A stretch of DNA of 64,000 nt. It comes from Dictyostelium discoideum. Its lineage: Eukaryota. The stretch is from the NCBI GenBank assembly GCA_000004695.1, contig CM000151.3:5280001-5344000 (forward strand), in the 5' to 3' direction. Shown piece after piece: positions 6,994 to 62,916 of the stretch. The notes under the pieces were generated by a model that had not been told where the DNA came from, made no database searches, and saw nothing but the letters and a program-made list of their open reading frames with translations. The position numbers and the translations under genes are program-made. Position 1 is the stretch's first letter. Every line of letters begins with the position of its first letter.

Positions 6994-7044
<51 letters not shown>

Positions 7045-7216
7045 ATGGGTTAGTTTGGTTTGTTACCAAAAAAAAAAAAAAAAAAAATTTCAAAAAAAAA
7101 AATTTCAAAAAAAAAATAGTAAAAATAAAAAAAAACATGTCAAAGTATGAAATTGTGTAATTACCTTTAACCAAAAAAATAAAATAAAAAAGAAATAATA
7201 TTATTGTGGCTTTCAT
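1471..7216 (-). CDS. 7TM receptor-like protein with a ~1,100-aa Cys-rich ectodomain and a signal peptide; at least 4 exons
   Basis: Last exon 1471..5406 is the track ORF extended 96 nt upstream to the acceptor tttttaaaaag|GTTATT; it ends in 7 predicted TM helices and a short tail. Exon 5536..6062 joins in phase (GAT GGT GAT|GTAAGT donor at 5535-5530; acceptor ...tttaaag|AT GAT GGT at 6062). Exon ?..6144 ends AGT T|GTAAGT (donor at 6143-6138); all three junctions are frame-consistent with the three track ORFs. A probable exon 1 starts at ATG 7216-7214 and encodes the signal peptide MKATIILFLFYFIFLVKG, followed by a GTAATT donor. The exon1/exon2 junction (poly-A-containing intron around 6960-7165) is not resolved. 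Confidence 0.7.
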
Positions 7217-7810
7217 TTTTATTTTTGTTCTAAACAAAATAAAAATAAAAAAAAAAAAATAATTTAAAAAAAAAAAAAAAAATATGAAAATAAAACTTTA
7301 TTTTTAGATTTTTTTTTTATTTCAAAGAAGAAGATTTTAAAAATAATTTGAAAAAAGTGAAAAAAAATCTAAAAAATTTTTTTTTTTTTTTTTATTTTAA
7401 TCACTTTTTTAATTTTTATAAACTTTATATAAAATCACATTTATTTTTTAAGAAAACCAAGAATCCCAGTTGTCAGAGAAAATTTGATTTATTTTATTTG
7501 TTTAATTTTTGTTTTTTTTTTTTTTTTTTTGTCAATTAAAATTCAAAGAAGATTTATTTATTTTTTTACACTAATTTTTTTATTATTGATTATTTTTTTT
7601 TTTATAGATTATTTTTTTTAAATTTTTTTTTTTATCTATTTTTTTTTTATATTATTAATATTTACAAAAAAATCAATTTTTTCATTTTTCTGAAAATATT
7701 ATAAAATTGTATATTATAAAATAATATATAATTTTATAATATTAATAAAATTATATATATTATTTTATATTAAGAGATAACTCTAAAATTTTTGGTGATT
7801 ATTATTATTA

Positions 7811-7815
7811 TTTTT

Positions 7816-7879
<64 letters not shown>
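7811..7879. repeat. Pure poly(T) homopolymer of about 70 nt
   Basis: Uninterrupted T run read directly from the sequence, in the intergenic region before the tRNA island. Confidence 0.9.
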
Positions 7880-7881
<2 letters not shown>

Positions 7882-8313
7882 TCAAAGAGTGTGTTGATGG
7901 AAGTGATAAATTGGTCTAAGTCGGGGTGGGAGTTTTGATTTTTTGAAAATAAAATTTTCCATTTATTTCTTTAATAAGTCTTTTTATAGGAAAAATAAAA
8001 TATTTTTTTTTTTTTTTTTTTCGTTTCAAATTTTGAATTGTATTATTACTTTTGATAAAAACATCTTTTTTGTCCAAACTTTTTTCTAAATCTTTTTTTA
8101 TTTTATCGTATGGCCGTGATTGATGTTGATGACATATTTAAATTGGTTTTTTTTATTGGAGTTTTATCCACAATTTCGCTTATTTTTTGTAGGCATTTGT
8201 GTTGCTTAATATTTGTGGTGTTGTTTGTAATTTTCATCTTCTTTTCTTTTTATTTATTTTATTTTTCCTTTAAAAAGTTAAAAATCTGGAAATTTTCTGA
8301 TTAAATTGGGTTC

Positions 8314-8350
<37 letters not shown>

Positions 8351-8578
8351 TTATAGAGAGTACTGAGTGAATTATTTTATTTTTAGAGATGTTTAGGAAG
8401 TGCTATTGCGTGAAGAGGTGAGTTCCATTGTCTTCTATATTGTAATAGCTTTAGCGAGATTAATGAGTCTAATTTATTTTGTTCCTCTGGCCGTTGCTTT
8501 GATTTGATTCTTAATGTTTTGTTTATAACCACTTGTATCCTATTTTTTCTTGTAGAAAATCGAAATTTTCCATAAAAA

Positions 8579-8668
8579 GCCCGTGTCGTATAGTGGTTAT
8601 TATATCTGTCTTGTACTTGTTACAAAAGCGATAACAGAGGGTCCTCAGTTCGATTCTGAGCTCGGGCA
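8579..8668 (+). tRNA. Intron-containing tRNA; my fold gives anticodon UGU (Thr) with a 17-nt intron after position 37, but the isotype is uncertain
   Basis: Acceptor GCCCGTG / CTCGGGC+A has one T-T mismatch. D-arm is GTAT-AGTGGTTA-TTAT. Anticodon stem TCTGT/ACAGA flanks 24 nt, which fits a 7-nt loop CTTGTA..A plus an intron CTTGTTACAAAAGCGAT. Variable loop GGGTC. T-arm CTCAG-TTCGATT-CTGAG. Followed by T7, a Pol III terminator. Confidence 0.6.
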
Positions 8669-10017
8669 CTTTTTTTTAAAAACCATCTTGATGGTCGTCT
8701 GTTCAATTCTTTTAATGAAACTAAATCAAATATTGAATTATATGAATTGGTGAAAGGACTATATTTGGAAGTACCTATTCCGAATTGGAATATAATAATC
8801 TTTCCATGTTAAATTTTATTAATCAGTATATTCTTTGGATCTTTAAAATTGGATCTTTTGGAAGGGATTTTCAAATTTTTACATTTTTGGAAGTTAGCTT
8901 TAGTGCAACACTTTTTTTTACCTGTGAACTTCTAGGGATTTCCTTGAGTCAGCGGTGTTTTTTAAATTGTATTTTATTTTTTTATTTTTTTTTTTTTTTT
9001 TAAATATAAATAAATTATTTCACAGATTTGGATCTTCAGCAATAATTGTTTATTTCGTTTATTTAGATCAGATTTAGATCTTTATTTTGTAAAGATCAAG
9101 TAAAAAATTAATTTATATCTAAAAAAAAAAATATATGGCCATCAATTTGCGATACCACACTGAATTGTTGAACATTAACACAATAATTTATATAAATGAT
9201 TTATTAGTTAAAAATACTCGCCTAAATTATTGCTCATGTTTTTTCAGAATCTTGTAATAGAAAAATATAATAAAATTAAATAAATATATATAAATTAAAA
9301 TAAAGTAATAATAATAAGTTGATGTTATCGAAAATATCTATAATTATAAATGTTTTTTATTATTGAAAATTTTTAATTTTTATATTTGAGATTTAAAATT
9401 ATGTTTATGAGTTTTTCAATTGATTGACATTAAAAACTCACCACGTGGCTTTTTCCAAAAGTCTAATTATATAAACATAAAATATTTTAGTTTGCGAGCG
9501 AGATTGTATCTAATTTATTATCTTGATAAAACATAATTTTATTGTATCAATTTAATTATTACACAATTATAATACAACACTGAATGGTTCTATAAAGCTA
9601 TAAGCTATGACCTCTAGACATTTTTCATATAAAAACACAATAATATCGATATTACACCAGATATGGATTTGTAATCAACTCTACAGTGATGACAAAATTC
9701 AATACTCAATATTAGACTCGATTTTATTCTCAAAAAATGGTATAAATCTGAATCCTGGGGCCACATAAATAATGTAAAAAATTTTAAACTATCAAATTTT
9801 GAGCAATTGAGTATCAATATATTTAAGCTATAACTCCAAAATAATAATAAATATTCTTAAATCAATTTTTTTATAAAAAAAAAAATCTAAACACTTATTA
9901 TTACTAAAGATCTAAATAAGGATTTGGGTCAAATTATTCAAATTATAATTTGCCACTAAAATTTTCCGAGATGACCAAGATTCGAACCTATGCTGTTTGT
10001 TTTATCCATAAAAAAAG

Positions 10018-10088
10018 TGCCGCGACCTGGAATCGAACCAGGGTCAACAGAGCCACAATCTGATGTACTACCACTATACTATCACGGC
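10018..10088 (-). tRNA. tRNA-His (anticodon GTG)
   Basis: Reverse complement reads GCCGTGATAGTATAGTGGTAGTACATCAGATTGTGGCTCTGTTGACCCTGGTTCGATTCCAGGTCGCGGCA. 7-bp acceptor stem with one G-U pair. D-stem GTAT/GTAC. Anticodon loop TTGTGGC. T-arm CCTGG-TTCGATT-CCAGG. Discriminator A. Confidence 0.85.
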
Positions 10089-10182
10089 GAATTTTACAAA
10101 AAGTGTCAAATTTGTGCTTTTTTTGTTATTACCAATTTTTTTACATAGTTTGGTCAATAATCGGGCAGAAACACAAAAATTG

Positions 10183-10241
10183 TATTAACTAAACCAATCG
10201 AACCAGGGTTATCAGAGCCATAATCTGATGTACTATCACCA
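10183..10241 (-). pseudogene. Degenerate partial copy of the tRNA-His gene (tandem duplicate about 170 bp upstream)
   Basis: ccaatcgaaccagggttatcagagccataatctgatgtactatcaccatactcacggcgaattt aligns with the intact gene at about 85% identity. It lacks the 3' acceptor strand, its T-stem no longer pairs, and the anticodon loop is mutated to TTATGGC. Confidence 0.6.
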
Positions 10242-10526
10242 TACTCACGGCGAATTTGATGTTTCTATGCCAATAATATATGAATGGTAAAAAATGAAGC
10301 TTTATCAATATTGTTTGTTTAATTAAAGAAAATATAACTAAATTTATTATCACTGTCAAACTGTGTGGGATAGTTTGTTTGATATTAAAAAACAAAAACA
10401 TCCGAGTATTTTATTTAAAAGTCCATAATTTATGATGCAATCTCATATTTATCAAAAAAATTTCACATTTAACTTTAATATCAAAATAATTTAAAAAAAC
10501 AAAAAAAAAAAATATAAATAGTTTTA

Positions 10527-11786
10527 TTAATTTCTTTGTATTCCATTTATTTTAAAGGAGGTAATACTCTTTTTTGTTTGTATTATTTTTTCTATTTCTT
10601 TGGTTAGTTTTTCATCTTCATCTTTAATACCTATTGTTAAACTATTGACCTTTTTGGGAAGAAATGAAAGGGATTCAATGTTTGTAAAGTTTGAACCAAG
10701 AGTTAGTGATGTTACAAATGGTGGAATACTGTTTGCTTTTAAATTTATATTATAATTGTGTAATTGTAAATCTGTTACAGAATAAGGTAGAAATCTTTTA
10801 TTAACAGGTTGTGTAAAATTAAAACCACATCTAAGTACTAATATTGATTCGTTTGGAAGATTAGTGCCATTTTCTTCAATGTTAAATTCATTGCCTAAAT
10901 CTAAATATTTAACAGATTCTGGTATTGAATCAAATTCAAGGTTTTGATTTAATTTATTAAATAAAAGATATTGAACAGATTGTGGTATTGCTCCTGGTAT
11001 TATCATTTTGTCATAAAAAGATAATGAAAGGTAGTTAATATCATTACCAATTGATTCTAATAAATCTGGTTCATTAGTTTCTAATTCTAATCTCTTTATA
11101 TTTGGTGATAAATACTTTTCAAATACTGAATCGCCTTCAATTTGAGTCTAAATATTAAATTTGTAAAAAAAAAAATTAGAATTTGGTTTCTTTCTTAGCA
11201 ATTTGTTTTTAACACTTACATTAGATAAAGATGTAATTAAACTTTCAATACAATGTCTAGCGTTTGTATCATACTGTAAACAATTTTGAATTATATTTTT
11301 AAATGAATTGGATAAGTGTTTTGGTATAGGAGGAATACCTTTATCATCTCTTTTAGACTTGGACAAATCCAAACCAGCCATTTCAATCATTGTACAACCA
11401 ATACAAAAAATATCAGATTTACTACCTGCTTTACCATTTTGTAATTTAACTTCTGGTGCCATATGTGAATCTGTACCTACAAATGAAAAATACTTTGAAC
11501 TCTTTTCAATTTGTTTTGATAATCCAAAATCTATGAATTTTACAATGATTTCATTATTTTTATCTTGAACCAAAAAGATGTGATCACCTTTAATATCACG
11601 ATGAATAACACCTGATTCGTGAATTTTCCTAAGTGCTTTGACGATTTTAATCATTAAAGATTTTATTTCTTCCTCTTCAAATCTTTTATTTGGTTTTTGT
11701 TTTATTAAGTCTGAAATGGATGTGGCATCTTCAATGTATTCTGTATAAATGTATTCCCCAATCTTCCTGAAAATGCTCATTATCAT
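10527..11786 (-). CDS. FNIP-repeat protein with a protein-kinase C-lobe (HRD and DFG intact); 2 exons
   Basis: Exon 11220..11786 contains VIHRDIKGDHIFL, IDFGLS and GTDSHMAPE. Donor TCT AAT|GTAAGT at 11219-11214, a 72-nt intron, and acceptor aatatttag| at 11148. Exon 10527..11147 continues in frame into FNIP repeats (LPxSVxxLxLGxxFNxxI). No Gly-loop or VAIK lysine is encoded upstream of MIMSIFRKIGEY, so the 5' end may be incomplete. Confidence 0.65.
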
Positions 11787-13512
11787 TTAACATATTATCT
11801 GTTGATTGATTAAATGTGTTTAAAGGTGGTGATTTTTTAAAATTAACTATTTTACCATTGATGTTTATTGATGTGATATGCGATGGTATATATTTTTTTA
11901 ATTCCTCTATTTTGATATCGTTTTTGAAACCAAATTTCAAATTGATTATTGATGAAGGAAGATTTGATAATGATTCAAAGTGAGCGAAATTTGAACCAAG
12001 GGTTAGCATTATTATTGATCGAGGGATACTATTAGGTAGTATTTTTAAATTGTAATTGTATAATTGTAGATCTGTAACTGATGAAGGGATGTATCTTTGA
12101 TTAATGGTAAATGTAAATCCAGTTCTTAGTGTTAGTATCGAATCTTCAGGAATTAAAATTCCATACTTTTCAATATCAAATCCATCACCAAAGTCTAAAA
12201 ATTCTGGAAGAGTTAAGTTTATTTCGTTTTGAGAAAATTGATTTAATTTATTAAATACAAGATGTTTAACAGATTGAGGAATTGATCGTTTTTTAAGAGG
12301 ATGGTTGAATGATGGTAGCTTTAAATACTTAATACTGTCTGGTAATATACCTGGATCTAAAGGATAGTTGTATGATTGTAATATTAAGTACTCTACACCA
12401 TTAAATATTACCTTACTTTCAAGTGGTTGATTGTAGGTTGGTAATTCTAAATATTTTATACCATGAAAAGTTGGTGGAACAATTACCTGATTGAAAAGTG
12501 GTAATGTGGTACATTCATTTGGAAGGTAAATTGGTTCTATTGTTTCCACTACGCTGTTTTTAATTACATAGTTGTACAATTCATTGGAATTGAATCTAGC
12601 ATTTGGTTTGATTTGTAAACAATGTTGGATAATGTTTTTAAAATGATTTGATAAATGATCAGGGATTACAGGAATACCATTAATATCTAGCAATTTTAGG
12701 TCACCACCTACAATTTCAATTAATGATGAATCATTAATTTCAAAATGTAATTCTGAATCAAATATGGAATGGTCAAAACCAATTATTTTAATAAAATCTG
12801 TAGGTAACATTTTATCATTTTCATCATAAAGTATAAGAATATTTTGGCATTTAATATCAAAATGAATTATACCCATATCATGAATACTCTTTATTGATTT
12901 TATTATTTCAGTAGCTACAATAAATTGTTCTTTTTTATTTAACTTTCCAAATAATCTAGATAATGGAATTGCTTTATCAATATATTCTAAATAAACGTTA
13001 AAAGTATTATTTCCATCTTTACCATACCCATACAACTTTGGAGAGCATTTGCAAATATTTAAAATATCTATAATCCCGACCTATTAACAATGGGTTAATT
13101 AAATTTATAATGGAGGAAATTTAAAGAGATTTTAAATAAGTATGCTTACATTTTTATGTTTTTTGGTATAATAAACTTTATTTTCTGAAATATTTTTTTG
13201 AGGTTTATATTCTTCATGAATATATTGAATAATTTCCCAGTTTTGTTCGACATGTATTGGGTTATCTGATAATTTGAGATCTCTAACCCTAGTGGTTAAT
13301 GTTTCAGATGTGGGCAATTGTTTATTGCATGGTAAATGGAGACATTCCACACTATTTGGTAATGTTCCTGGTGTGAGTGCTTGATTATAGGATGATAAAT
13401 CGAGACATTCCACACCATTTGGTAGTACTCCTGGTGTGAGTGCTTGATTATAGGATGATAAATCGAGATATTTTACAAAAGGTGAGACTTCGGCGGTAAA
13501 AACAAATTCTTT
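11731..13512 (-). CDS. Tandem paralogue: FNIP-repeat pseudokinase (HFD and GFD in place of HRD and DFG); no in-frame ATG found, so possibly a pseudogene
   Basis: Exon 11731..13080 (450 codons): degenerate kinase core KLYGYGKDGNNTFNVYLEYI...MGIIHFDIKCQNIL...IIGFDHS followed by about 10 FNIP repeats. It joins in phase to an upstream exon ending AAT|GTAAGC (donor 13149-13144; acceptor ttaatag| at 13081). The upstream exon frame (FNIP-like repeats plus a degenerate N-lobe) is open from a TGA near 13513 down to 13150 and contains no ATG, and no upstream ATG exon is evident before the DOCK gene 3' end. Confidence 0.5.
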
Positions 13513-13774
13513 TCATGTTGTTGGGATAACTCGAGTTATCTTTTTCAAAAAAAACTTTTTTGTTCAGAATTAATTCAATTATTCACTAATAGTTCCAATA
13601 TTATTTATTCACAACCAAAATAAAAAATATTAAAAAAAAAAAAAAAGAAAAAATTTCAATAATAATTTTTATTTTATTTTATTATTACAACAATTTATTT
13701 AAATAGTTTTTTTTTTTTTTTTTTTTTTTTTAATTTTATATATATATATTTTTAGTTTTTTTTTTTTTTTTTTT

Positions 13775-16700
13775 TTAGTCAGATTTAAAACCACTAGAAA
13801 GACGTTGAGTAAAAGATTTTCTACTAACATGAGAAGTTGATAATAAATTATTAAAATTTGAATCATCATCATTCTCTAATGAAATTGTACTACCACTACC
13901 AGTTGAATTTCTATTTGGATTTGAACTATTTCTATTATGAGATTTTGTTGGAGTATTGTTACCACTACTTGAACCAGTATTATTAATCATTGAGGAATTT
14001 AATTGAATAACTGGAGAACCACTACCACCAAAATTATTACTACTTCCATAGATACTACTATTACTAAGATTATTATTACTACTAGTGCCATTAGAATTTG
14101 AATTTAAAGTTGGATAATAGGAGCCTTCTGGTGGTAAAACACCTAAAGACTCCATTAAATCAGTTAATTGAATATAACCTTGTTCCATTTCTTCTTGGAA
14201 TTCTTGAGAGGATTGATTTTCAACTAAACCTTTATTAATGAATAATGCTTCAGAGCAACTACCCAAAAATAATGATAAACTTTTCTTTAACTTTTTAATT
14301 TGTTCCAATGGATAATTATAGGCACCACTTGTTGGGTCAGTTGCCAAAAATACTCTACAAATTTCCTGTGGACCAATGTTAACTTGTAATCTTAGAGTAC
14401 CTTGAAGTACTTGTTGAAGTGTTTTTGGATTTGGTACTTTTGAACGAACTTCATTTGAAATGGTTTCAGTTCGTTGATCAATGGTTTCAATTGAATTTTC
14501 AATGGGTGACAAGATAACCTCTTGTTTTGAAATCACAGAGATACGTTTCTTTGTATATGGGAAATAGTTTGATGTCTTTAGAATGGTTTTACGTTTATAT
14601 TGTTCAGCGATTGAATTTGCACGACCTGCACCACTTTCAATGAATGGAGTTTCGAAAATGAATCGATTCAAATGAACGATTCTATCGAATGGAGTTCTAC
14701 GACCAACCAATTCCTCCTCAGTAAAGTAGGGTACAACAGAGGTAATTTGAAGATAACATTTGGCAGCATCTTGTTCAATCGATGAAATATCTACAGTTGA
14801 ACCTTCAATGATTACAATTGAATCCTCTGGTACAGAGAGTTTCTTTGAATAAAGTGATTTCAAACGATCTTTAATCTCGACCAATCTTGTAATCTTTGGT
14901 TCTTTATAGATGAATTCTTTACCATTCATCTCTTCAAATCTCTTTCCATAGAGACCAACTCTATAGTATGAACCAAGCATACGAGATTGAGTATTTGTAC
15001 ATTCAACAATTCTCTTGAAAATATCTTGTAAATCACCATGACAACGTGCCAACTCTTGATAATTTAAATGTTCTTCATGAACTGGTAATAACAATTTATA
15101 GACCAAATTTGCAATTTCAAAATATTCACTCTCTTTTAAGAGTAAAATAGCTTCTTGAACCAATTTCAAAAAGAAATCCAATGTAAACGATTGATTATCA
15201 TCGGCTCCATCTTCTTCACGTTCAATGAATGTATGAGATTCCTCTAAAGAGTTTTTATTAATTGCCATGAAATTATTTGAACCATTAATAGTTGGAATTG
15301 GTTTACCAATCAATGATAGATATTCAGCTACCAATGAAGACATATGTAAATAACATTGAGCTGCCTCTACATAATTCTCTTGAGTACGATGGAAATCTGC
15401 TAAACCTTGTAACCAACAAATACGAGTATCAGCATTACTTTTATTATTATCAGCGATACGATGATATAAATCGGCCACCATTTCAGGATCATCACGATGA
15501 TTATTAATCTTTATATTATCAATTACAAATGTATGTAAACGTTTGGTTAGATCTTCAATTTGTTTTGAGAATGATTTAGTACCAGCTTTATCAGCTTGAG
15601 CATAGGCATAGGAATTAATTGTATCCAATGATTTCTTTAAGAAATAATCATCATTGATACTTTTTACTATTGTTGATAAACCAATTGTAACTTGAGTTTT
15701 TGTACGTACGAAATTCTTTTTAGTTTGTTCGAAATTCTTTCTAAATAGAATATAGGTGAATGCTGATGCCTCTTCACGTGTGGTTTGATTCACTGAATTA
15801 CAATGACGAATTACTGCATTACAAAGATCCAAACAGAATGAATTATTATTTTCAAATAATATCTTTGGGAATCTATAAATGAATTGACGTAATGTTGCAT
15901 AAAGTTTTGGTACCAATTGAACTGGTTGATTCTTTTTTAACATTGAATGTAAAAGATTGAATATCTTTTCAATTACATCGAAATAATGTGTTGTTTTAAG
16001 ATCTCTATCGTATTCACACATAAATTCATCAACAACATCTAAAACTACAGATCCAACTTCCAATGCTAAATGACTCTCTAATCTATCATCATAATCTGAA
16101 ATATTAATTTTATTTTGTGCTAATGTACTTTTCATTCTTTTTTCATTTCTAAGTGTACCACTACCTGATGAAACATCTCTTGTTGTACTTGGTGAATAAT
16201 TTGAATTATTATTTTGATTTTGATATCCTGATCCTGATCCATTTAATGATGATGTTGATGTTGATTCAATTAAACTACCACCACTACTACCACTTGAACC
16301 ACTACTTTTTGATGAATAACCTGAACCACTACCACCACCACTACTTGTTACAAATGATGTTGATAATAAATTTGAATTACTTGTACTATTAATTAAAATA
16401 GTTGAAGATGATGGACTACCACTAACATTATTATTATTATTATTACTACTACCAACATTATTATTATTAGAATAATTATTTTCTAAAACACTCTTTCTTG
16501 AATCAACTCTTTTTTCACGTAATGATCTATTATATAATTTTTTACTACCATATGGTGAATTTCTAGAATTTGAATAAAAATCTTCTAAAATTGATTTAGC
16601 AGTTGAAGTACGTAAAGATGTTGAAGATTCAACTTTATCCATTAAAATTTCTTTACCAACAAATTCGAAAATCTCTAAACATTGATTTAAAATATCAAAT

Positions 16701-19667
16701 AATGTTACATATTTTGCTTTTGGTTCTTCACGCCACCAAATCTTTATTAGATTGATATGAATAGTTTTCAAAAGATAAATGAATGAAACTAAAATATTTC
16801 TTTTCATAATAAAAGAATCATCTTTAATATTATCCCAATTATTTACTACAATGGTTAAATAAGGTGTGAAAACACCAACGATTCTTTGTTTATTTGATTG
16901 ATCGAACCATCTTGTATCCATTTCTAATCTTGTTAGGGTATCTCTTAATGAATTTGCAGCATCCATACGAATTAAAGGTATTTTTGAACCAATACCAGCG
17001 CTAATATTATTTAAAAGTAAATCTGAAAGGAAATGTTTTGAAGAGGTTAAAATATTTGTCAACTTTGAGGTTGAATCGATTCTAAATGGTAATGGTATAT
17101 TCAATTGAACGAAATAATCATTTTGGCAAATGATTCTAAGGAATTCGAATTTCAATTCATAGATTTCCATTTCATTCTCACCACCGATTTGATTGTTATG
17201 AGTGAAATCGTTGACTGCACGATCAATGATTTTAAATACATAACCCCGATCAGCTATTGAAACCAAACAAGATATGAAACCTGCTAAACTTCTAATTAAT
17301 TCTTTAGCCAATTTAAAGGTATGTTTTGCACGTGTTGATGATTCCCATCTTAGAATTGAAATCAATTTCGCCAATTGTGGTCTAACACCAACGAATCTAC
17401 CCTTACGAGTTTTATTCTCTTCTCTCTTATTACGTTCAATCAATGATAATGCCATTGATTTATGAATTACTTGAAAGAAGAATCTAGAGAATCTAAGAAT
17501 ATTTTCAGAGTTTTGTTCTTGGAATCTAACCAATTCTAACCATGTTTTAATTAAAACCTCATATGTTGGTAAAAATTCAATATTACTACCTGCTTGATTG
17601 TTTACATTTGAGAAAACATATTTAACATAACGATCCGATATAGTACTACCAACATCATTAACCATTGATAATATTTCACCAATAGTTATAAATGTTACCA
17701 TTGATAACTCTGATGAATGTTGTTGATTTGTCATTAATCTAAATAATTGATTCATTAAAATTGGGAAAAATTGAATTATACATTCTAATTTACTTGATGG
17801 TAACAATTTAATTGATTTAATTAATTGTTCCATTGTTGAATTTGATGGTGATATATTCGTTGTTGTTGTTGTTGTTGTTGTTGTTGTAGTTGTTGAATTA
17901 TTATTATTATTATTATTACTATTTGATAAATTTTGAGATGAAATTGTTGGTGAAGTTAAAATTGAAGGTGAAGTTACTGATGGTGTTGAAGTTGGAGTTG
18001 GTGATAAACTTGGTGAAGCTAAACAATTATTTATAAATGAAAACTGTGAAATATTATTAAAGAAACTATTTAAATAATCATCAGTTGAATGAATGGATGA
18101 TACTAATTTTGAACGTACTTGAAAGATTGGTTTCTTATTATCAATATATTTGATTGTTGCCTCTTGATCACGTCTAGTATAACGTGATGGGAATTCATAA
18201 GCCAATGGTAAATTGAAAACTTCTTCACCAATCATCTTTCCATATTGAATGATTGGTAAAACACCATAAGCCACTGGTTGATCGACTAAATCACCACCAC
18301 CACTACTCTTTTGACAAGCGATATGATAGAATGTGAATAGAATATGTAAAGATGGTGATGGTGATAATGGTAATCTAATCTTAATTTCATCATTGAAAAC
18401 TGGTGTTTTTGAATGATAGGTAACTTGTGTATACGCTTTGGAATTGAATGATTGAGTTTTACTCTTACCATAGATTGCTTTCAAACCTTCTGGACATAAT
18501 GGATTCTCATCAGTCTCTAATAATTGTATTTTACATGTAAGATTTCTAGCTGCAAATGATCCACTACGATTTGATAAATTCAATGTCTCTGGATATAAAT
18601 AAAGATTATTTACAAATTCTGTATTAATTTCAAATCTTTGATTTGATGAAAATTCATGACATTCTTTAATAATATTTTCAATACCAATATTTGATGGTAT
18701 TTTACCAGGTTGATTAATATTATTATTATTTTGTTCAGTACTATTTTGAGTTGTTGTTGTTGTTGATTGTTGTTGTTGTTGATCTAATTGTGGTAAATCA
18801 ATTTTAATTAAAGAACTATTTAAAATAAATTTTTTATTATTTAAATAAGGTGATTGTTGATCATTTGGTAAAATTTCTTTAATATCAACTAAACACTGAC
18901 CAGGAATAATTTTTAATTTCTTTGCAGAAGCACTTTTTGAACCTTCTGATAAAGTTGAATCCAACATTGAAGAATCAGTCATTTCTGAACGATGACGATA
19001 GAGTGGACGAATTGGGGTATCTTCACCTACACCCTCTTCAAAAACTGGTACACAACCCCAACAGAAAGCTTGTCTAAATGCACCCAATCTTGTGCAAGAT
19101 GATTTAATTGATTCTTTGAATTTATCCTTTTCCTTTTCTTTCAAGTTCATTTTAATGTATGGTTCAGAATGATCCTCTAAATCACCGGTTAAAACTTTTT
19201 CAACCTTAAGTATCAAATAAATATTCTCCAACTCTGATGAAGATCGGGCGGTAACATTAAATATTGCAGATTTTGCCAATGTTACATCATCGACAACCAC
19301 ATCTTTTGATGAGGCACCCGATGAAGTTGTTATATGACTAGTGGTCATTTTAAAGGATTTATCATTGATGAAATCGAAATAGAATGTCTCTGATAATCTT
19401 GCTTTCTTTTGAATATCATATAAATACATTGAACAATAGAATGGTTCAGGTTCATCATCACCATCCCAAAATTTAAATGATAAATCTTTGAATGTAACTT
19501 GAATAATTCTTTTCTTTTCTTTTTGATATGGTGTTGGTTCTTGATATTGTACAGTTGGTTCTGATAATGTAAAATATGAATATAATCCAAATTCTGTATT
19601 ATTATTTTCACCATTATTATTATTATTATTGTTATTACTATTATTATTATTTTCACCATTATTATTT

Positions 19668-19701
<34 letters not shown>

Positions 19702-20728
19702 TGTTAATTAAAACTTTCTCCTTTCTAAATTGTCTTTCTAAATAATGTAAATGTAATTTATCAGGTTTATCAGTTTTAAGTGTATTTTGAATTTGAAATT
19801 GATGTTGTTGTGATAAATAATTAACTTCTTTAAGATTTTGTTGTTGTTGAAATTGTAATGCTGCCATTTGTTGTTGTTGTGGTGTTTGTTGTTGTGGTGC
19901 TAATTTGGCTTCTAATGCTGCTTCCGATGCTATCTTTTGAGCTTGTGATATACTAATATTAACATTACTATTTAAATTATTAATATTTACAATTGGTTCC
20001 GTCTTAAACTCAATTCTTTCCTCTGTCAATTGATGTACTATTGCACCTGGTGTTTCGTTTTTATAATAATTAAATGTTTTCAATGATTTCCATGTATTAT
20101 TTGAATAAAATTTAATACAATCATCAATATGTTGATTCTTATTTTCTTTATAATCCTATAAATATTTTTAAAAAAAAAATAATTAATAATTAATAATTAA
20201 TAATAAAAAACAACAATTAATAATAATTATTATTATTATTTTTAAAATACAAACAAATGGATTAGATTTAATTCTATTTTCTTTTGGTAAATTTTCAATT
20301 TGATTTTGTGTTGCATCATCAGGGATTACAACTAATTCTCTAGAGACTTCTCTATTGATTTCTTTAGATTCATAGTAATATCTTTCGAAATCGAATGGAT
20401 AATCTTCTTCTTTTTCAATTTCATCCTCTAATAGAATCGATGGGATTTGTCTTGTATTTCTCTTTTGGTAGTTTTCATTATATTGTGCCAAGTCACTGGT
20501 TGAATTTGATACTGAAACATTACCACTACTACCACCACCACCATTGGATATTGATGATGTTGATGATGATGCTGATGATATCGATTGTGATAATATTGAT
20601 GAGTTTGGTGATGATGATGACATTGAGGTTGGTAATGTTTGACTATTACTTGATCCTGTTAAATTCATACTACTACCACCTGTCGATTTTCTACTCTTTA
20701 AAAATGTAGAAACTTTTTTACCTTCCAT
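13775..20728 (-). CDS. DOCK-family Rho/Rac guanine-nucleotide exchange factor with DHR-1 and DHR-2; 2 exons, about 2,284 aa
   Basis: Exon 1 20255..20728 (Ser-rich N-terminus) ends CCA TTT|GTTTGT. A 99-nt intron 20156..20254 ends tatag|. Exon 2 13775..20155 is in phase. A DHR-1 C2-like motif, ARNLTCKIQLL...LHILFTFYHIACQ, matches the DOCK180 DHR-1 core. The C-terminal DHR-2 region reads ...RMLGSYYRVGLYGKRF...IVHLNRFIFETPF. Confidence 0.8.
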
Positions 20729-34060: not shown

Positions 34061-34109
34061 TGGGACAGGGATCGAACCAACGATCTTAACTTCGAATGTA
34101 ATATAAAAC
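34061..34109 (-). other. tRNA-like 3' fragment (..GTTGGTTCGATCCCTGTCCCA) directly abutting tRNA-Met
   Basis: Contains a T-loop-like GGTTCGATCC motif and a CCCA end but does not fold as a complete tRNA. A partial copy of the tRNA-Met 5' end plus its flank recurs at 34342-34365. Confidence 0.4.
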
Positions 34110-34182
34110 TGTCAAGTCAGAGGATCGAACTCTGGACCTTAGGATTATGAGACCTACGCTCTACCAACTGAGCCAACCTGAC
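34110..34182 (-). tRNA. Elongator tRNA-Met (anticodon CAT)
   Basis: Reverse complement reads GTCAGGTTGGCTCAGTTGGTAGAGCGTAGGTCTCATAATCCTAAGGTCCAGAGTTCGATCCTCTGACTTGACA. Anticodon loop CTCATAA. T-loop TTCGATC, which is not the initiator GATCGAAA. The 31-39 U-U mismatch typical of elongator tRNA-Met is present. Confidence 0.85.
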
Positions 34183-34867
34183 ATCTTGATGTTTTTTTAT
34201 TTTTTTTTGCTGGAATCGATGTACTAACTTTTTCCCAAAAATTCTCCATTTTAATTATTTAGCATCTCAAGGAGAAGCAACTAATAATTGCGTTATCCAA
34301 TTCAAAAAAAAAAACTTGTTCTAAAAAAATCTAGCAACTAAGCCAACCTGACATGTTGATGTTTTTTTGTAATAAAGCTTATTTATTAATTTAAGTTGTT
34401 TTGTTTTTTGAAAATTCTTGGTAGGTTTAAGTTGATAAAACAGTTTTGGAATAATTGACTATCTTTTGATGATCTTCTCTTCTTGTTTTACTGAGAGCCG
34501 ACTATATCTGTTCAACTAAAATCTAAATACATGGGAAACAAATTTCTAAACTTCCTTTATAAAATTAAGAGGCCTAGAAAACCTACAACTATTACTTTTT
34601 TAAATTTAACTAACATAATAAAAAAATAAGATAATAAAATAATAATAATAACCATGGTATAATAAATTGTCTTATTGAGAGAAAAAAAAAAAAAAAAAAA
34701 AAATTATATATATATATATAAATATATAATAACTAATTTACAAATATTACATACTCTAAAAAAATATTATTTTAATGTGTAAATGTGTTTGAAAGTCATT
34801 ATTATTTATTTTCTCTAAATATTATAAAGATAATTTAACAAACACTCTTTTCTTGGAGAATAAATTT

Positions 34868-44764: not shown

Positions 44765-45948
<1,184 letters not shown>

Positions 45949-59599: not shown

Positions 59600-60709
<1,110 letters not shown>

Positions 60710-61224: not shown

Positions 61225-62916
61225 TTATTTAATATAAGTTATCATATTTTGTTTTTTATATCCACCCCATGATGAATAATAATTAAAATTATCAAATTTA
61301 AATGATTTAATATGTGGATATTTTTTAATTAAATTATAAAATATGAATCTTTCAGAGTAGTAGCCTAAATAAACCCAATTTGTATTAAACACTATGGAAT
61401 GAAAGTGAATAATATTTTGATTTCTTTTAATTATATTTTTAAATATTTGTGGAGTATTTGATGATTTAAGTGTAAACTTTTTCAAAGATTTAATTGATAC
61501 CACTAAATTTGTAATTTCTTTAAAAAATGAAAATGAATTTAAGTTTGAATTATCAATATTAGAAGGCCATTCGAAATCACCTTTATCCTGTAAAACACTA
61601 TTACAAAATTGGTTAATTATTAAATGTTGTAATCTACTATTATTATTACTAAACAATTCTGAAACTATTTTCCAATTTATTTTTACAAGTTTTTCATATT
61701 CATTGATATTATTTGACATTTGTGAATAATCAATATTAATCAATGGTTTATATCTTTGATTATTTATACAATTAATACATGGAGATAATGAATATTTCAA
61801 TTTCTCTTGATCATTTGATAAGAAATACATTAAATTCTTAAAACAGAAATTTACAGAAACTTCTTTCAATCGATTTGATGAACTTAATATTAATGCAATA
61901 TCTTCAAGTGTTAAATCTAAAATACCAACTGTTATTAAACTTTCAATTATTGATAAATAATTAATACCATTATTAAATGTATTATCATTAATACCATTAT
62001 CATTAACTCCTGATAATAAGTAAAGAAATGATTTAGAAGATATTTTTAAAAATGTAATGTTTTTAATTGAATGTGACCATTTATTAAAAAAATTTAATAT
62101 TTCTATCTTATTTTCATTATTATTTTCACAATAATATATATTTATTGTATAAATTTTAGAAACTTTTAATGTTTGACTGGGATCATCAATTATTCTAAGT
62201 TGCGAAAATTCTTTTAAGTTAATTTTATTAATAAAACCACCAATTAATGGATCATTCTCATAGTTTGGAATATTGACATGAGTTGACCTATTAAAACATA
62301 ATGATGATGATAATTCTTTATCTTTATTTGTTGTTGTTATAATTATCTTTTTAATAATAATCATTCCTTCTGAATCTGAATCTGAATCTGAAGATGATGA
62401 TGAAGATGATGATGATGGTGACGATTTTAAAATCATAAGTTCATTTTTATCATTAATTTTTAAAGTTAAATTGATTTTCGATAAAAAAGATATTAATTGA
62501 TCCATTGATTCACATTTTAAATATTTACAATTTGAAAGTTTAATTATTGAATAATCATTAGTTATTTTGGTTGGTGATGGTTCAATGTCGATGTTGACAA
62601 TGTTATCATTAGATATAGCAGTGTTTAATAATTTATAATTAATTTTATAAACATTTATATTGTTTGAAACAATTTGAAACCAATCTTTACAAACTAATGA
62701 TAGCTTTAATATTAATTGATTTAATTCAATATTAATTTCAAAATATTCTAAACCATTAAATTTATTTTTATTTTTACTATAATAATTTATAAATCGACAT
62801 AATTTAAAAACAATTGAATTTTGAATATATGTTGGTAATTTTGAAAAATTATTATTATTATTATTATTTTTATTATCAAAGATGTAATTTGATATATTTT
62901 TTATAATGCTTTTCAT
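61225..62916 (-). CDS. Asn-rich F-box-like/LRR-like hypothetical protein; paralogue of 40535..42385
   Basis: 563-codon ORF. It shares LPTYIQNSIVFKLCRFINYY (compare LPLYIQKQIIKLLCNHINYN), LSLVCKDWFQIVSNNINV (compare LSLALVNKDWFKTLSDNIRV), NFCFKNLMYFLSNDQEKLKYS and a C-terminal PHIKSFKF motif with the 40.5-kb gene. Confidence 0.7.
   Translation of the reverse strand: MKSIIKNISNYIFDNKNNNNNNNFSKLPTYIQNSIVFKLCRFINYYSKNKNKFNGLEYFEINIELNQLILKLSLVCKDWFQIVSNNINVYKINYKLLNTAISNDNIVNIDIEPSPTKITNDYSIIKLSNCKYLKCESMDQLISFLSKINLTLKINDKNELMILKSSPSSSSSSSSSDSDSDSEGMIIIKKIIITTTNKDKELSSSLCFNRSTHVNIPNYENDPLIGGFINKINLKEFSQLRIIDDPSQTLKVSKIYTINIYYCENNNENKIEILNFFNKWSHSIKNITFLKISSKSFLYLLSGVNDNGINDNTFNNGINYLSIIESLITVGILDLTLEDIALILSSSNRLKEVSVNFCFKNLMYFLSNDQEKLKYSLSPCINCINNQRYKPLINIDYSQMSNNINEYEKLVKINWKIVSELFSNNNSRLQHLIINQFCNSVLQDKGDFEWPSNIDNSNLNSFSFFKEITNLVVSIKSLKKFTLKSSNTPQIFKNIIKRNQNIIHFHSIVFNTNWVYLGYYSERFIFYNLIKKYPHIKSFKFDNFNYYSSWGGYKKQNMITYIK

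Follow-up and report, generated by a model that had tools for sequence, protein, structure and literature searches.

The kinase-like locus at positions 10527-13512 on the minus strand of a 64,000-nucleotide stretch of Dictyostelium discoideum AX4 chromosome 2 (the window) is very probably a single decayed gene, fnkF_ps, a non-processed (duplicated) pseudogene of the STE/Dicty3/FNIPK subfamily. This subfamily of FNIP-repeat kinases is specific to Dictyostelium. The original prediction had described a tandem pair of paralogous genes, a reading that we abandon here: its two units are domains a and b of one dual-kinase-domain gene, which is collinear with an intact Dictyostelium firmibasis protein and shares the architecture of fnkE. 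The two ORFs are paralogous modules, 35% identical to each other, and the locus runs in the dual-domain (fnkE-type) order of FNIP repeats, kinase a, FNIP repeats, kinase b and FNIP repeats. Assignment to the FNIPK subfamily follows from the combination of kinase-like domains with FNIP repeats (PF05725) and from nearest relatives that are Dictyostelium fnk genes. Frame-disrupting lesions fall in sequence conserved among intact relatives, and the retention of two canonical introns (69 and 72 nt) argues that the locus is not a retrocopy.

The pseudogene status of the locus has already been published; the sequence features are real and the case is an ordinary one. The entry for this locus in Table S2 of Goldberg et al. 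2006 (PLoS Genet 2:e38) gives DDB0203080p as FNIPK-F_ps, a 'pseudogene' with 'dual-domain' organization and class FNIPK/FNIPK, annotates it as 'kmc/partial kd' with the motifs HFDIKCQN/HRDIKGDH and GFD/DFG, and records that it 'lacks G52 and K72'. Over the 400 residues compared, the window translation is identical to the conceptual protein of that entry, MKRICFYRRSLTF-X-VKYLDLSS...HFDIKCQN...GFD, in which X denotes a frameshift. A search of the literature on fnkE and fnkF found nothing besides this kinome paper. We add a nucleotide-level map of the lesions (Table 1), a comparison with the intact D. firmibasis gene, a differently broken copy in D. cf. discoideum, and an estimate of how recently inactivation occurred. 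The pseudogene belongs to a lineage-specific kinase family and was already published, and the importance of these additions is small beyond annotation hygiene.

Table 1. Coordinates of features at the fnkF_ps locus, in window positions
Feature	Position	Strand	Remarks
DOCK stop codon, upstream edge of AT-rich spacer	13777-13775
AT-rich spacer, former promoter and 5′ UTR region	13517..13774	-	GC 4-15% per 100-nt window vs 23-41% in flanking coding DNA
Ancestral start ATG (13516-13514) and 22-codon out-of-frame stub	13448..13516	-	MKRICFYRRSLTFCKISRFIIL*
Exon 1 open frame, 121 codons	13150..13512	-	2-3 FNIP repeats (from 13476) and degenerate domain-a N-lobe remnant
Intron 1, 69 nt	13081..13149	-	GTAAGC...TAG; includes stop codons
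Kinase domain a, ancestral pseudokinase	12560..13080	-	Pkinase match, profile positions 43-145 only
Middle FNIP block and linker to kinase domain b	11767..12559	-	FNIP PF05725, 7 stretches; collinear with D. firmibasis P0122 residues 330-610
Deletion junction	11731..11766	-	EDWGI 11766-11752 = first strand of kinase domain b
Kinase domain b from beta5 onward	11220..11786	-	Pkinase 5.7e-33, profile positions 74-258
Intron 2, 72 nt	11148..11219	-	GTAAGT...TTTAG
C-terminal FNIP block of domain b and stop TAA (10529-10527)	10527..11147	-	FNIP 6e-20

Architecture and lesions of the locus

The upstream frame is open from 13512 to 13150 and again from 13080 to a TGA at 11733-11731. The earlier figure of about 570 stop-free codons is correct as a count (121 + 449), but only once the first intron is spliced out; a GTAAGC donor occupies the same position, after KHKN, in the D. 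cf. discoideum copy (L001). The exon 1 region is 65% identical to fnkE residues 288-394, the N-terminal overlap available for comparison, and the N-lobe of domain a survives as the remnants NWEII (13242-13228) and KVYYTKKHKN (13179-13150). Further along are HFDIKCQN (12864-12841, with HFD at 12864-12856), GFD (12780-12772) and, in the linker ahead of domain b, ININGKIV (11868-11845). A Pfam scan for kinase and FNIP (PF05725) domains, proposed as a check in the original prediction, detected both domains in both units. The upstream unit scored 1.5e-37 for FNIP and 3.5e-10 for Pkinase (40.2 bits, profile positions 43-145 of 263); the Pkinase score of the downstream unit was 114.9 bits, and both units lie above the PF00069 gathering threshold of 31.7 bits.

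That the upstream unit is catalytically dead, as had been proposed, is borne out by its HFD and GFD motifs, the deletion of its APE region, and the absence of a Gly-loop or VAIK motif. Reading HFD and GFD as marks of decay, on the other hand, was mistaken. HFDIKCQN and GFD also occur in domain a of the intact fnkE, and these motifs are therefore ancestral to domain a, a pseudokinase trait kept in intact relatives; the D. firmibasis domain a likewise carries HFDIKCEN. What is specific to this copy is that the activation segment, APE and subdomain IX have dropped out in frame between ∼12770 and 12727: where fnkE domain a reads GVTETHMAPEIKLK...SDIWSLGCT and the D. firmibasis protein VGTETHMAPEMK...SDIWSLGCT, the window has only FDSELHFEINDSSLIEIVGG.

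A larger lesion separates the two units. About 293 nt, a small intron included, are missing at ∼11753 (293 mod 3 = 2), taking with them the Gly-loop to beta4 of domain b, and alignment found no counterpart in the window of D. firmibasis residues 613-684, which span these elements. The left side of the junction was misplaced by MAFFT, and its position was set by exact string matching, which put the break between 11753 and 11752 to within a few bases; beyond it the upstream frame reads out of frame to the TGA. The corresponding sequences are NEHFQEDWGIHLYRIH* in the window, NEHFEEEWEIISTLGSGNFGKVFKA... in the D. cf. discoideum copy and EHKIDDWEIISTLGKGNFGIVF in D. firmibasis. The deletion joins EDW to YIYTEYIED out of frame, so that the upstream frame ends at 11731 and domain b is left stranded in another frame. 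Candidate splices across this junction, GTAAAA...TTTTCAG and other GT/AG combinations, were read by eye and gave a stop or the wrong frame.

The downstream ORF starts at 11786 with a fortuitous ATG, at a point where the upstream unit is still coding; it extends to 11220 and, after the second intron (11219-11148), from 11147 to 10527, for a total of 395 aa. The downstream gene was said to keep HRD and DFG. Both were found, within HRDIKGDH at 11603-11580 (HRD at 11603-11595, with H in place of the catalytic-loop Asn) and at 11531-11523, and they are flanked by YIYTEYIED and by an APE motif (HMAPE, 11465-11451). Neither unit has a Gly-rich loop (GxGxxG) or a VAIK lysine, again as proposed, and the missing loop has a different cause in each: ancestral degeneracy in domain a and the copy-specific ∼293-nt deletion in domain b, where the D. 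cf. discoideum copy still encodes GSGNFGKV and LCAIK.

It is also conceivable, though quite unlikely, that the locus comprises two separate functional genes, a pseudokinase-FNIP gene expressed from a non-ATG or cryptic start and an N-lobe-less C-lobe-FNIP gene expressed from ATG 11786. Both ORFs are long and stop-free, and the downstream one has an ATG start and a canonical intron. Against this, the two ORFs share 56 nt (11731-11786) that are read in different frames, an overlap not mentioned in the original prediction, and there is no AT-rich promoter spacer between them: GC content is 26-29% across the junction, compared with the far lower values of the true intergenic spacer (Table 1). ATG 11786 has no counterpart in homologues, which read through WEIISTLG..., and in the upstream unit no in-frame Met occurs until just ahead of HFD. 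The downstream product would also be devoid of beta1 to beta4 and helix C, without which ATP binding by a kinase is impossible. In Table S2, moreover, the locus appears as a pseudogene (Goldberg et al. 2006, PLoS Genet 2:e38).

At the 5′ end, the locus is separated by the AT-rich spacer from a DOCK-family gene (DOCK-C2 plus DHR-2 lobes A-C). The original prediction had found no in-frame ATG upstream. Indeed none precedes HDMGIIHFD, but a start does exist as ATG 13516, one frame off and followed by a stop after 22 codons. The stub that it opens is homologous to the start of fnkE (MKRICFYRR vs MQKIKEGYRRR) and to that of the D. cf. discoideum copy, MQKIKKEYKMRQ, and the frameshift relative to the FNIP frame falls at ∼13477, 13 codons past the ancestral ATG. 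From the ATG to the YLDL codons the window has 46 nt, 26 nt fewer than the 72 nt, in frame, of the D. cf. discoideum copy. Right after the start codon there has been a net loss of sequence, so that ATG 13516 no longer shares a frame with the first FNIP repeat. Splicing through GTAAAA...CAG, read by eye, gives an in-frame TGA.

Could the frameshifts be errors in the reference, or be bypassed by unusual splicing or programmed frameshifting, so that a single dual-domain gene is still intact? A short T run (ACCTTTTGTAAAA) coincides with the 5′ shift and could conceivably hide a one-base miscall. The region, however, falls short of the sister copy by 26 nt and not by 1 nt, domain b has lost ∼293 nt of coding sequence, which is no one-base error, the activation segment of domain a is missing too, and the candidate splices tried restore neither frame. 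Goldberg et al. 2006 (PLoS Genet 2:e38), moreover, kept a category of its own for gene models mended from reads, yet gave this locus a 'p'. We therefore regard an intact gene as extremely improbable.

Under the single-gene reading, the ancestor would have had the fnkE-type order, with N-terminal FNIP repeats, a pseudokinase domain a with HFD and GFD and no Gly-loop, a FNIP block, an active-looking kinase domain b with GxGxxG, AIK, HRD, DFG and APE, and a C-terminal FNIP block. Three lesions disable the AX4 copy: the 5′ frameshift, loss of the domain-a activation segment, and the ∼293-nt deletion in domain b. The two halves together contain zero nonsense codons and zero small indels in 965 codons, and in this respect they are unusually intact for a pseudogene.

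Relatives and age of inactivation

Protein homologue searches identified fnkD, fnkA, FNIPK-G and a D. firmibasis protein of 1074 aa, KAK5575136.1 (P0122), as the closest homologues of the locus. The D. firmibasis protein is collinear along the whole locus, with residues 169-612 corresponding to window positions 12990-11752 and residues 685-1072 to 11753-10533, at 48% identity in the domain-a half and 58% in the domain-b half (residues 685-1072). Unlike fnkF_ps it is intact: its domain b is complete, spanning Pkinase profile positions 2-260, and its domain a has kept the activation segment. FNIPK-G_ps (DDB0229868p) is another AX4 pseudogene of the same subfamily that is likewise disabled by frameshifts; it differs in having a single kinase domain, a retained N-lobe and another genomic location. 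The downstream ORF finds its best protein-database matches, at ∼50% identity, in relatives of FNIPK-G_ps (P0026, P0028 and P0029).

The intact AX4 dual-domain FNIP kinase fnkE (FNIPK-E, DDB0229870) has the same architecture and motifs as the locus. It was not among the homologue-search matches, and our comparison with it covers partial protein sequence; P0031, followed as a lead to the fnkE locus, gave a different FNIPK C-terminal fragment (L002). As in fnkF_ps, domain a of fnkE combines HFDIKCQN and GFD with a degenerate N-lobe (WEIIKPQKNISENKVYYTTKHKN); its domain b has HRDIKSDH and DFG, and the domain-b activation segment is nearly identical to that of the window. In contrast to the window, fnkE retains the domain-a activation segment and the domain-b N-lobe (WEIISTICSGNECKV...LCAIK) and has zero frameshifts. 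It also has ∼367 aa of N-terminal FNIP repeats where the window has 2-3 repeats, so the window copy appears to be N-terminally shortened.

The similarity to fnkE raises the question of whether a transcribed pseudogene might act at the RNA level, for example in antisense or decoy regulation of this close paralogue. One 47-residue stretch of domain b shows ∼96% protein identity to fnkE, and IEK.SKY.SFVGTDSHMAPEVKLQNGKAGSKSDIFCIGCTMIEMAG is almost exactly common to fnkE domain b and the window. Among the 15 kinase pseudogenes of the kinome paper, 9 are reported to have yielded an EST or RT-PCR product (Goldberg et al. 2006, PLoS Genet 2:e38). A purely RNA-based function would not, however, be expected to retain long ORFs, and the D. 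cf. discoideum sister copy has undergone rearrangement and inversion and lies in different genomic surroundings. We consider such a role very unlikely.

The D. cf. discoideum copy was compared with the window by BLASTN with low-complexity filtering, an unfiltered run being swamped by low-complexity matches. The two copies share a 7-codon insertion, QYI[H/Y]EEY, that is absent from fnkE, which argues that they are sisters. Gene neighborhoods differ between the two, and strict orthology is thus not proven. The D. cf. discoideum copy retains an in-frame start, GSGNFGKV and LCAIK. Its lesions are all different from those of AX4 and comprise two deletions, one of 1.27 kb affecting domain a and one of 187 nt, an inverted stretch of ∼390 nt and 4 small frameshifts. 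Since the lesions are wholly different, inactivation appears to have been independent. We infer that the common ancestor of the two copies was probably intact and that each lineage lost fnkF independently and recently, which would explain why 570 + 395 codons are still stop-free. Of all substitutions ∼5.8% would create a stop, and the AX4 and D. cf. discoideum lineages have each diverged by ∼5% since the two copies split; the former figure, taken together with the stop-free state, implies a neutral divergence since inactivation of at most ∼2%. Of the alternatives originally offered, a very recent pseudogene or a pseudokinase expressed from a non-obvious start, it is the recent pseudogene that agrees with the evidence. 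Independent recent death in two close lineages offers a small example of rapid turnover among FNIP kinases. Gene conversion from fnkE is a process that might distort rate estimates at this locus.

Selective constraint and possible products

Pairwise dN/dS between the window and the D. cf. discoideum copy is 0.41-0.84. For a constrained kinase domain a value of ∼0.1 is expected; the observed values lie far above it, and we count them in support of a pseudogene, although for the AX4 lineage by itself the two halves disagree. When changes are polarized with the D. firmibasis protein, the domain-b half has accumulated 9 amino-acid changes in the AX4 lineage and 23 in that of D. cf. discoideum (p = 0.02), with 0 and 4 small indels, respectively. 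Later inactivation or some residual constraint could account for this difference, and a downstream half that evolves more slowly than a dead copy also speaks for a functional downstream gene of the kind considered above. Exon 1 of the domain-a half behaves otherwise: here the AX4 lineage has 11 changes and the dead D. cf. discoideum copy 7, so the upstream unit is evolving at least as fast as a dead copy, contrary to what two functional genes would predict.

A related scenario, which we judge unlikely, is that fnkF worked as a dual-domain gene until after the split between D. discoideum and D. cf. discoideum, and that in AX4 the stranded 395-aa ORF from ATG 11786, a kinase C-lobe with FNIP repeats but no N-lobe, is still translated as a partly constrained, non-catalytic scaffold, a 'half-kinase' born of a frameshifting deletion. 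In a collection of 15 billion proteins that includes D. discoideum assemblies, no protein matches either ORF; neither the spliced downstream protein nor any of three unspliced ORF products had an exact match on record, and a homologue search with domain a alone gave zero matches. The AX4 protein DDB_G0275319, whose gene lies ∼48 kb away in the window, is present in the same collection, and the lack of any protein model for the locus among its D. discoideum assemblies speaks for a pseudogene and further disfavors two separate functional genes. Returning to a single decayed gene, we expect no kinase function from the locus, and low-level transcription is possible. Automatic gene models in new Dictyostelium assemblies (P0027, for example) hide lesions of the kind mapped here and should not be taken as real proteins.

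A single dual-domain FNIP-kinase gene

The two overlapping minus-strand units that the original prediction read as a tandem pair of FNIP-repeat kinase genes (Table) are the halves of one dual-domain gene. The description of the sequence itself held: frames, motifs, FNIP repeats and truncated kinase domains were verified by translation and by a Pfam scan that matched Pkinase and FNIP in both units, and the roughly 570 stop-free codons upstream were recovered as 121 + 449 once the 69-nt intron is removed. The units share module order and 35% identity. FNIP matches (1.5e-37 upstream, 6e-20 downstream) are accompanied by partial Pkinase matches covering profile positions 43-145 and 74-258 of 263, respectively, and neither unit has a VAIK region or, as had been claimed, a Gly-loop. 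The downstream ORF carries HRDIKGDH, DFG and HMAPE.

Features of the FNIP-kinase locus in the window
Feature	Position	Strand	Details
Upstream frame, first exon open part	13512-13150	minus	121 codons
Intron in upstream frame	13149-13081	minus	69 nt, GTAAGC...TAG
Upstream frame, second part	13080 to TGA 11733-11731	minus	449 codons
HFDIKCQN, upstream frame	12864-12841	minus	
GFD, upstream frame	12780-12772	minus	
Downstream ORF	ATG 11786 to 10527	minus	395 aa
Intron of downstream ORF	11219-11148	minus	72 nt

Several observations argue against a gene pair. The reading frames share 56 nt (11731-11786) in different frames, an overlap that had gone unremarked. In 100-nt windows, GC content is 4-15% from the DOCK stop to 13550 and 11% past 10527, values typical of Dictyostelium intergenic DNA, and it remains at 26-29% across the junction of the units (~11753), with no low-GC spacer. 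An exhaustive HMMER search retrieved P0122 (KAK5575136.1), an intact 1074-aa D. firmibasis protein with the order FNIP repeats, kinase a (HFDIKCEN), FNIP block, kinase b, FNIP block, which is collinear with both frames: by tblastn, residues 169-612 correspond to 12990-11752 and residues 685-1072, in the other frame, to 11753-10533. The intervening residues 613-684 (WEIISTLGKGNFGIVF...VSICAIKK...YYGYGIDENDSL), Gly-loop through beta4, have no counterpart in the window. The upstream frame ends ...NTFNQSTDNMLNDNEHFQEDWGIHLYRIH*, and the EDWGI near this end is the conserved opening of the FNIP-kinase catalytic domain (compare EDWEF in protein P0028). Two functional genes are unlikely, since no promoter spacer separates the ORFs, homologues show nothing equivalent to ATG 11786, a usable start is missing from the upstream unit, and the downstream kinase lacks beta1 to beta4 and helix C, without which a kinase cannot bind ATP.

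The locus is the already known pseudogene fnkF_ps. Goldberg et al. 2006 (PMC1420674) enter DDB0203080p in their Table S2 as FNIPK-F_ps (fnkF), a dual-domain pseudogene labelled 'kmc/partial kd' and noted to lack G52 and K72; the conceptual sequence given there equals the window translation (400 residues) and carries an X marking a 5′ frameshift. The abbreviation 'kmc' stands for 'kinase motif-containing', meaning at least one recognisable kinase motif with at least three others missing. Homologue searches and exact look-ups in the protein collection returned no protein for either ORF, consistent with pseudogene status.

Lesions and the sister copy

The upstream unit was rightly described as dead and start-less: it lacks the Gly-loop and VAIK lysine, and no in-frame ATG precedes the methionine of HDMGIIHFD. 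An ATG at 13516-13514 begins MKRICFYRRSLTF..., similar to the start of the intact dual-domain AX4 paralogue fnkE (MQKIKEGYRRRHDY). Counted from the sequences, 46 nt separate it from the first YLDL codons, as against an in-frame 72 nt in the sister copy described below, and the stub therefore stops after 22 codons. HFD and GFD, in contrast, had been taken as marks of degeneration; they are not decay of the window copy, because domain a of intact fnkE likewise carries HFDIKCQN/GFD and the same degenerate N-lobe (WEIIKPQKNISENKVYYTTKHKN). Specific to the window copy is that the activation segment of domain a has been lost in frame: the window has just FDSELHFEINDSSLIEIVGG, where fnkE retains GVTETHMAPEIKLK...SDIWSLGCT and P0122 retains its equivalent.

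The D. cf. discoideum gene model P0027 led to a sister locus, L001 (L001:4940-7200, GCA_054859205.1 JBTAPH010000040.1); the deposited 274-aa model is an artefact that skips over lesions. The two copies show 83-94% nucleotide identity and have in common a 7-codon insertion, QYI[H/Y]EEY, which fnkE lacks, and are therefore each other's closest relatives. L001 retains an in-frame start (MQKIKKEYKMRQDYII...), about eight FNIP repeats, the same intron after KHKN, the linker and an intact domain-b opening (EEWEIISTLGSGNFGKVFKARNIDGFING). On its opposite strand, an inverted segment of ~390 nt encodes SKVSLCAIKKIEKKDKL, then, after a small intron, KLSTEVEILDKLKDNEHSMKYYGYGYDEDYNLYIYTEYIED...HRDIKGDH; since this is the domain-b N-lobe, the downstream unit of the window descends from a form in which it was complete. 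Against the 'restored' L001 sequence the window is short by ~293 nt (293 mod 3 = 2) at ~11753/11752, between TGGGGAAT and ACATTTATAC. This one deletion took out the N-lobe, caused the change of frame and created the stop at 11731.

L001 is damaged in quite other ways. Besides the inversion, 1.27 kb with the whole of domain a and the middle FNIP block (window 13089-11824) have been deleted, a further deletion took 187 nt (window 11282-11095), and four small indels shift the frame. The two copies have no lesion in common, and the simplest inference from their sequences is an intact gene in the common ancestor, lost independently in each lineage. It is unlikely that reference-sequence errors produced the apparent lesions of the window copy, which are losses of tens to hundreds of bases.

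Age of inactivation

Nei-Gojobori comparison of the window with L001 gave omega values of 0.41 for exon 1 of the domain-a half (dS 0.37, dN 0.15), about 0.8 for the domain-b kinase part (dS about 0.07, dN about 0.055) and 0.62 for the C-terminal FNIP block (dS 0.144, dN 0.089), all averages over a clearly dead lineage and the AX4 lineage, and much higher than the value of about 0.1 expected of a constrained kinase. Polarised with P0122, a distant outgroup that left 21 changes unassigned, the small counts of amino-acid changes in the domain-b half were 9 in AX4 versus 23 in D. cf. discoideum (p = 0.02); exon 1, polarised with fnkE, gave no significant difference (11 in AX4 versus 7).

A random substitution in the two ORFs would create a stop in about 5.7-5.9% of cases, so that 965 stop-free codons limit neutral divergence to at most about 2% (5% level); divergence since the L001 split is about 5% per lineage. 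This limit and the non-shared lesions suggest that the AX4 copy died recently and agree with the 'very recent pseudogene' offered as one alternative in the original prediction. Possible gene conversion from fnkE and the neighbourhood of L001 (alanyl-tRNA synthetase, DUF5898, peroxiredoxin), which differs from that of the window, qualify this dating. With recent inactivation, no function need be invoked to account for the long ORFs. The slower evolution of the downstream ORF and its lack of indels would fit a residual role as a scaffold, which is nevertheless improbable; an RNA-level role of the locus has no support.

Neighbourhood and family

GC content across the window ranges from 9 to 35%. 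The gene immediately upstream of the locus belongs to the DOCK family (DOCK-C2 and DHR-2 lobes A, B and C; 13775-20728, minus) and apparently has a single intron of 99 nt (20254-20156); its GTTTGT donor is unusual, and no other GT/AG pair keeps the frame. The predicted spliced product is 2284 aa. A tRNA-His(GTG) lies at 10017-10088 (minus), ~440 bp beyond the stop codon of the pseudogene, and there are no convincing ORFs in 7000-10300. Further tRNAs are predicted at 34109-34183 (Met) and 60030-60124 (Leu, 95 nt). An ORF at 61228-62916 (minus) exactly matches AX4 DDB_G0275319. The exact product of a 207-aa ATG ORF at 45325-45948 (+) is recorded only in Logan read-assemblies (4 contigs), with no name given and no AX4 protein record listed.

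Models for fnkA, fnkD and FNIPK-G are present in the protein collections; fnkE (DDB0229870, AX4) was not found there, even by a domain-a-only query, and is either absent from the deposited AX4 proteome or very differently modelled in it. In another D. discoideum strain (GCA_054859355.1), an isolated FNIP-kinase C-terminal fragment at L002:6800-7840, modelled as the 252-aa P0031 that begins mid kinase C-lobe, appears to be either one more pseudogene of the family or a gene model that is truncated. The D. purpureum protein P0123 (XP_003283808.1, 1438 aa) has three kinase domains (HRDVKSAN, HRDIKGDN and HRDIKGSN), each followed by an FNIP block; the kinase-plus-FNIP module has evidently undergone intragenic tandem multiplication more than once in the family.
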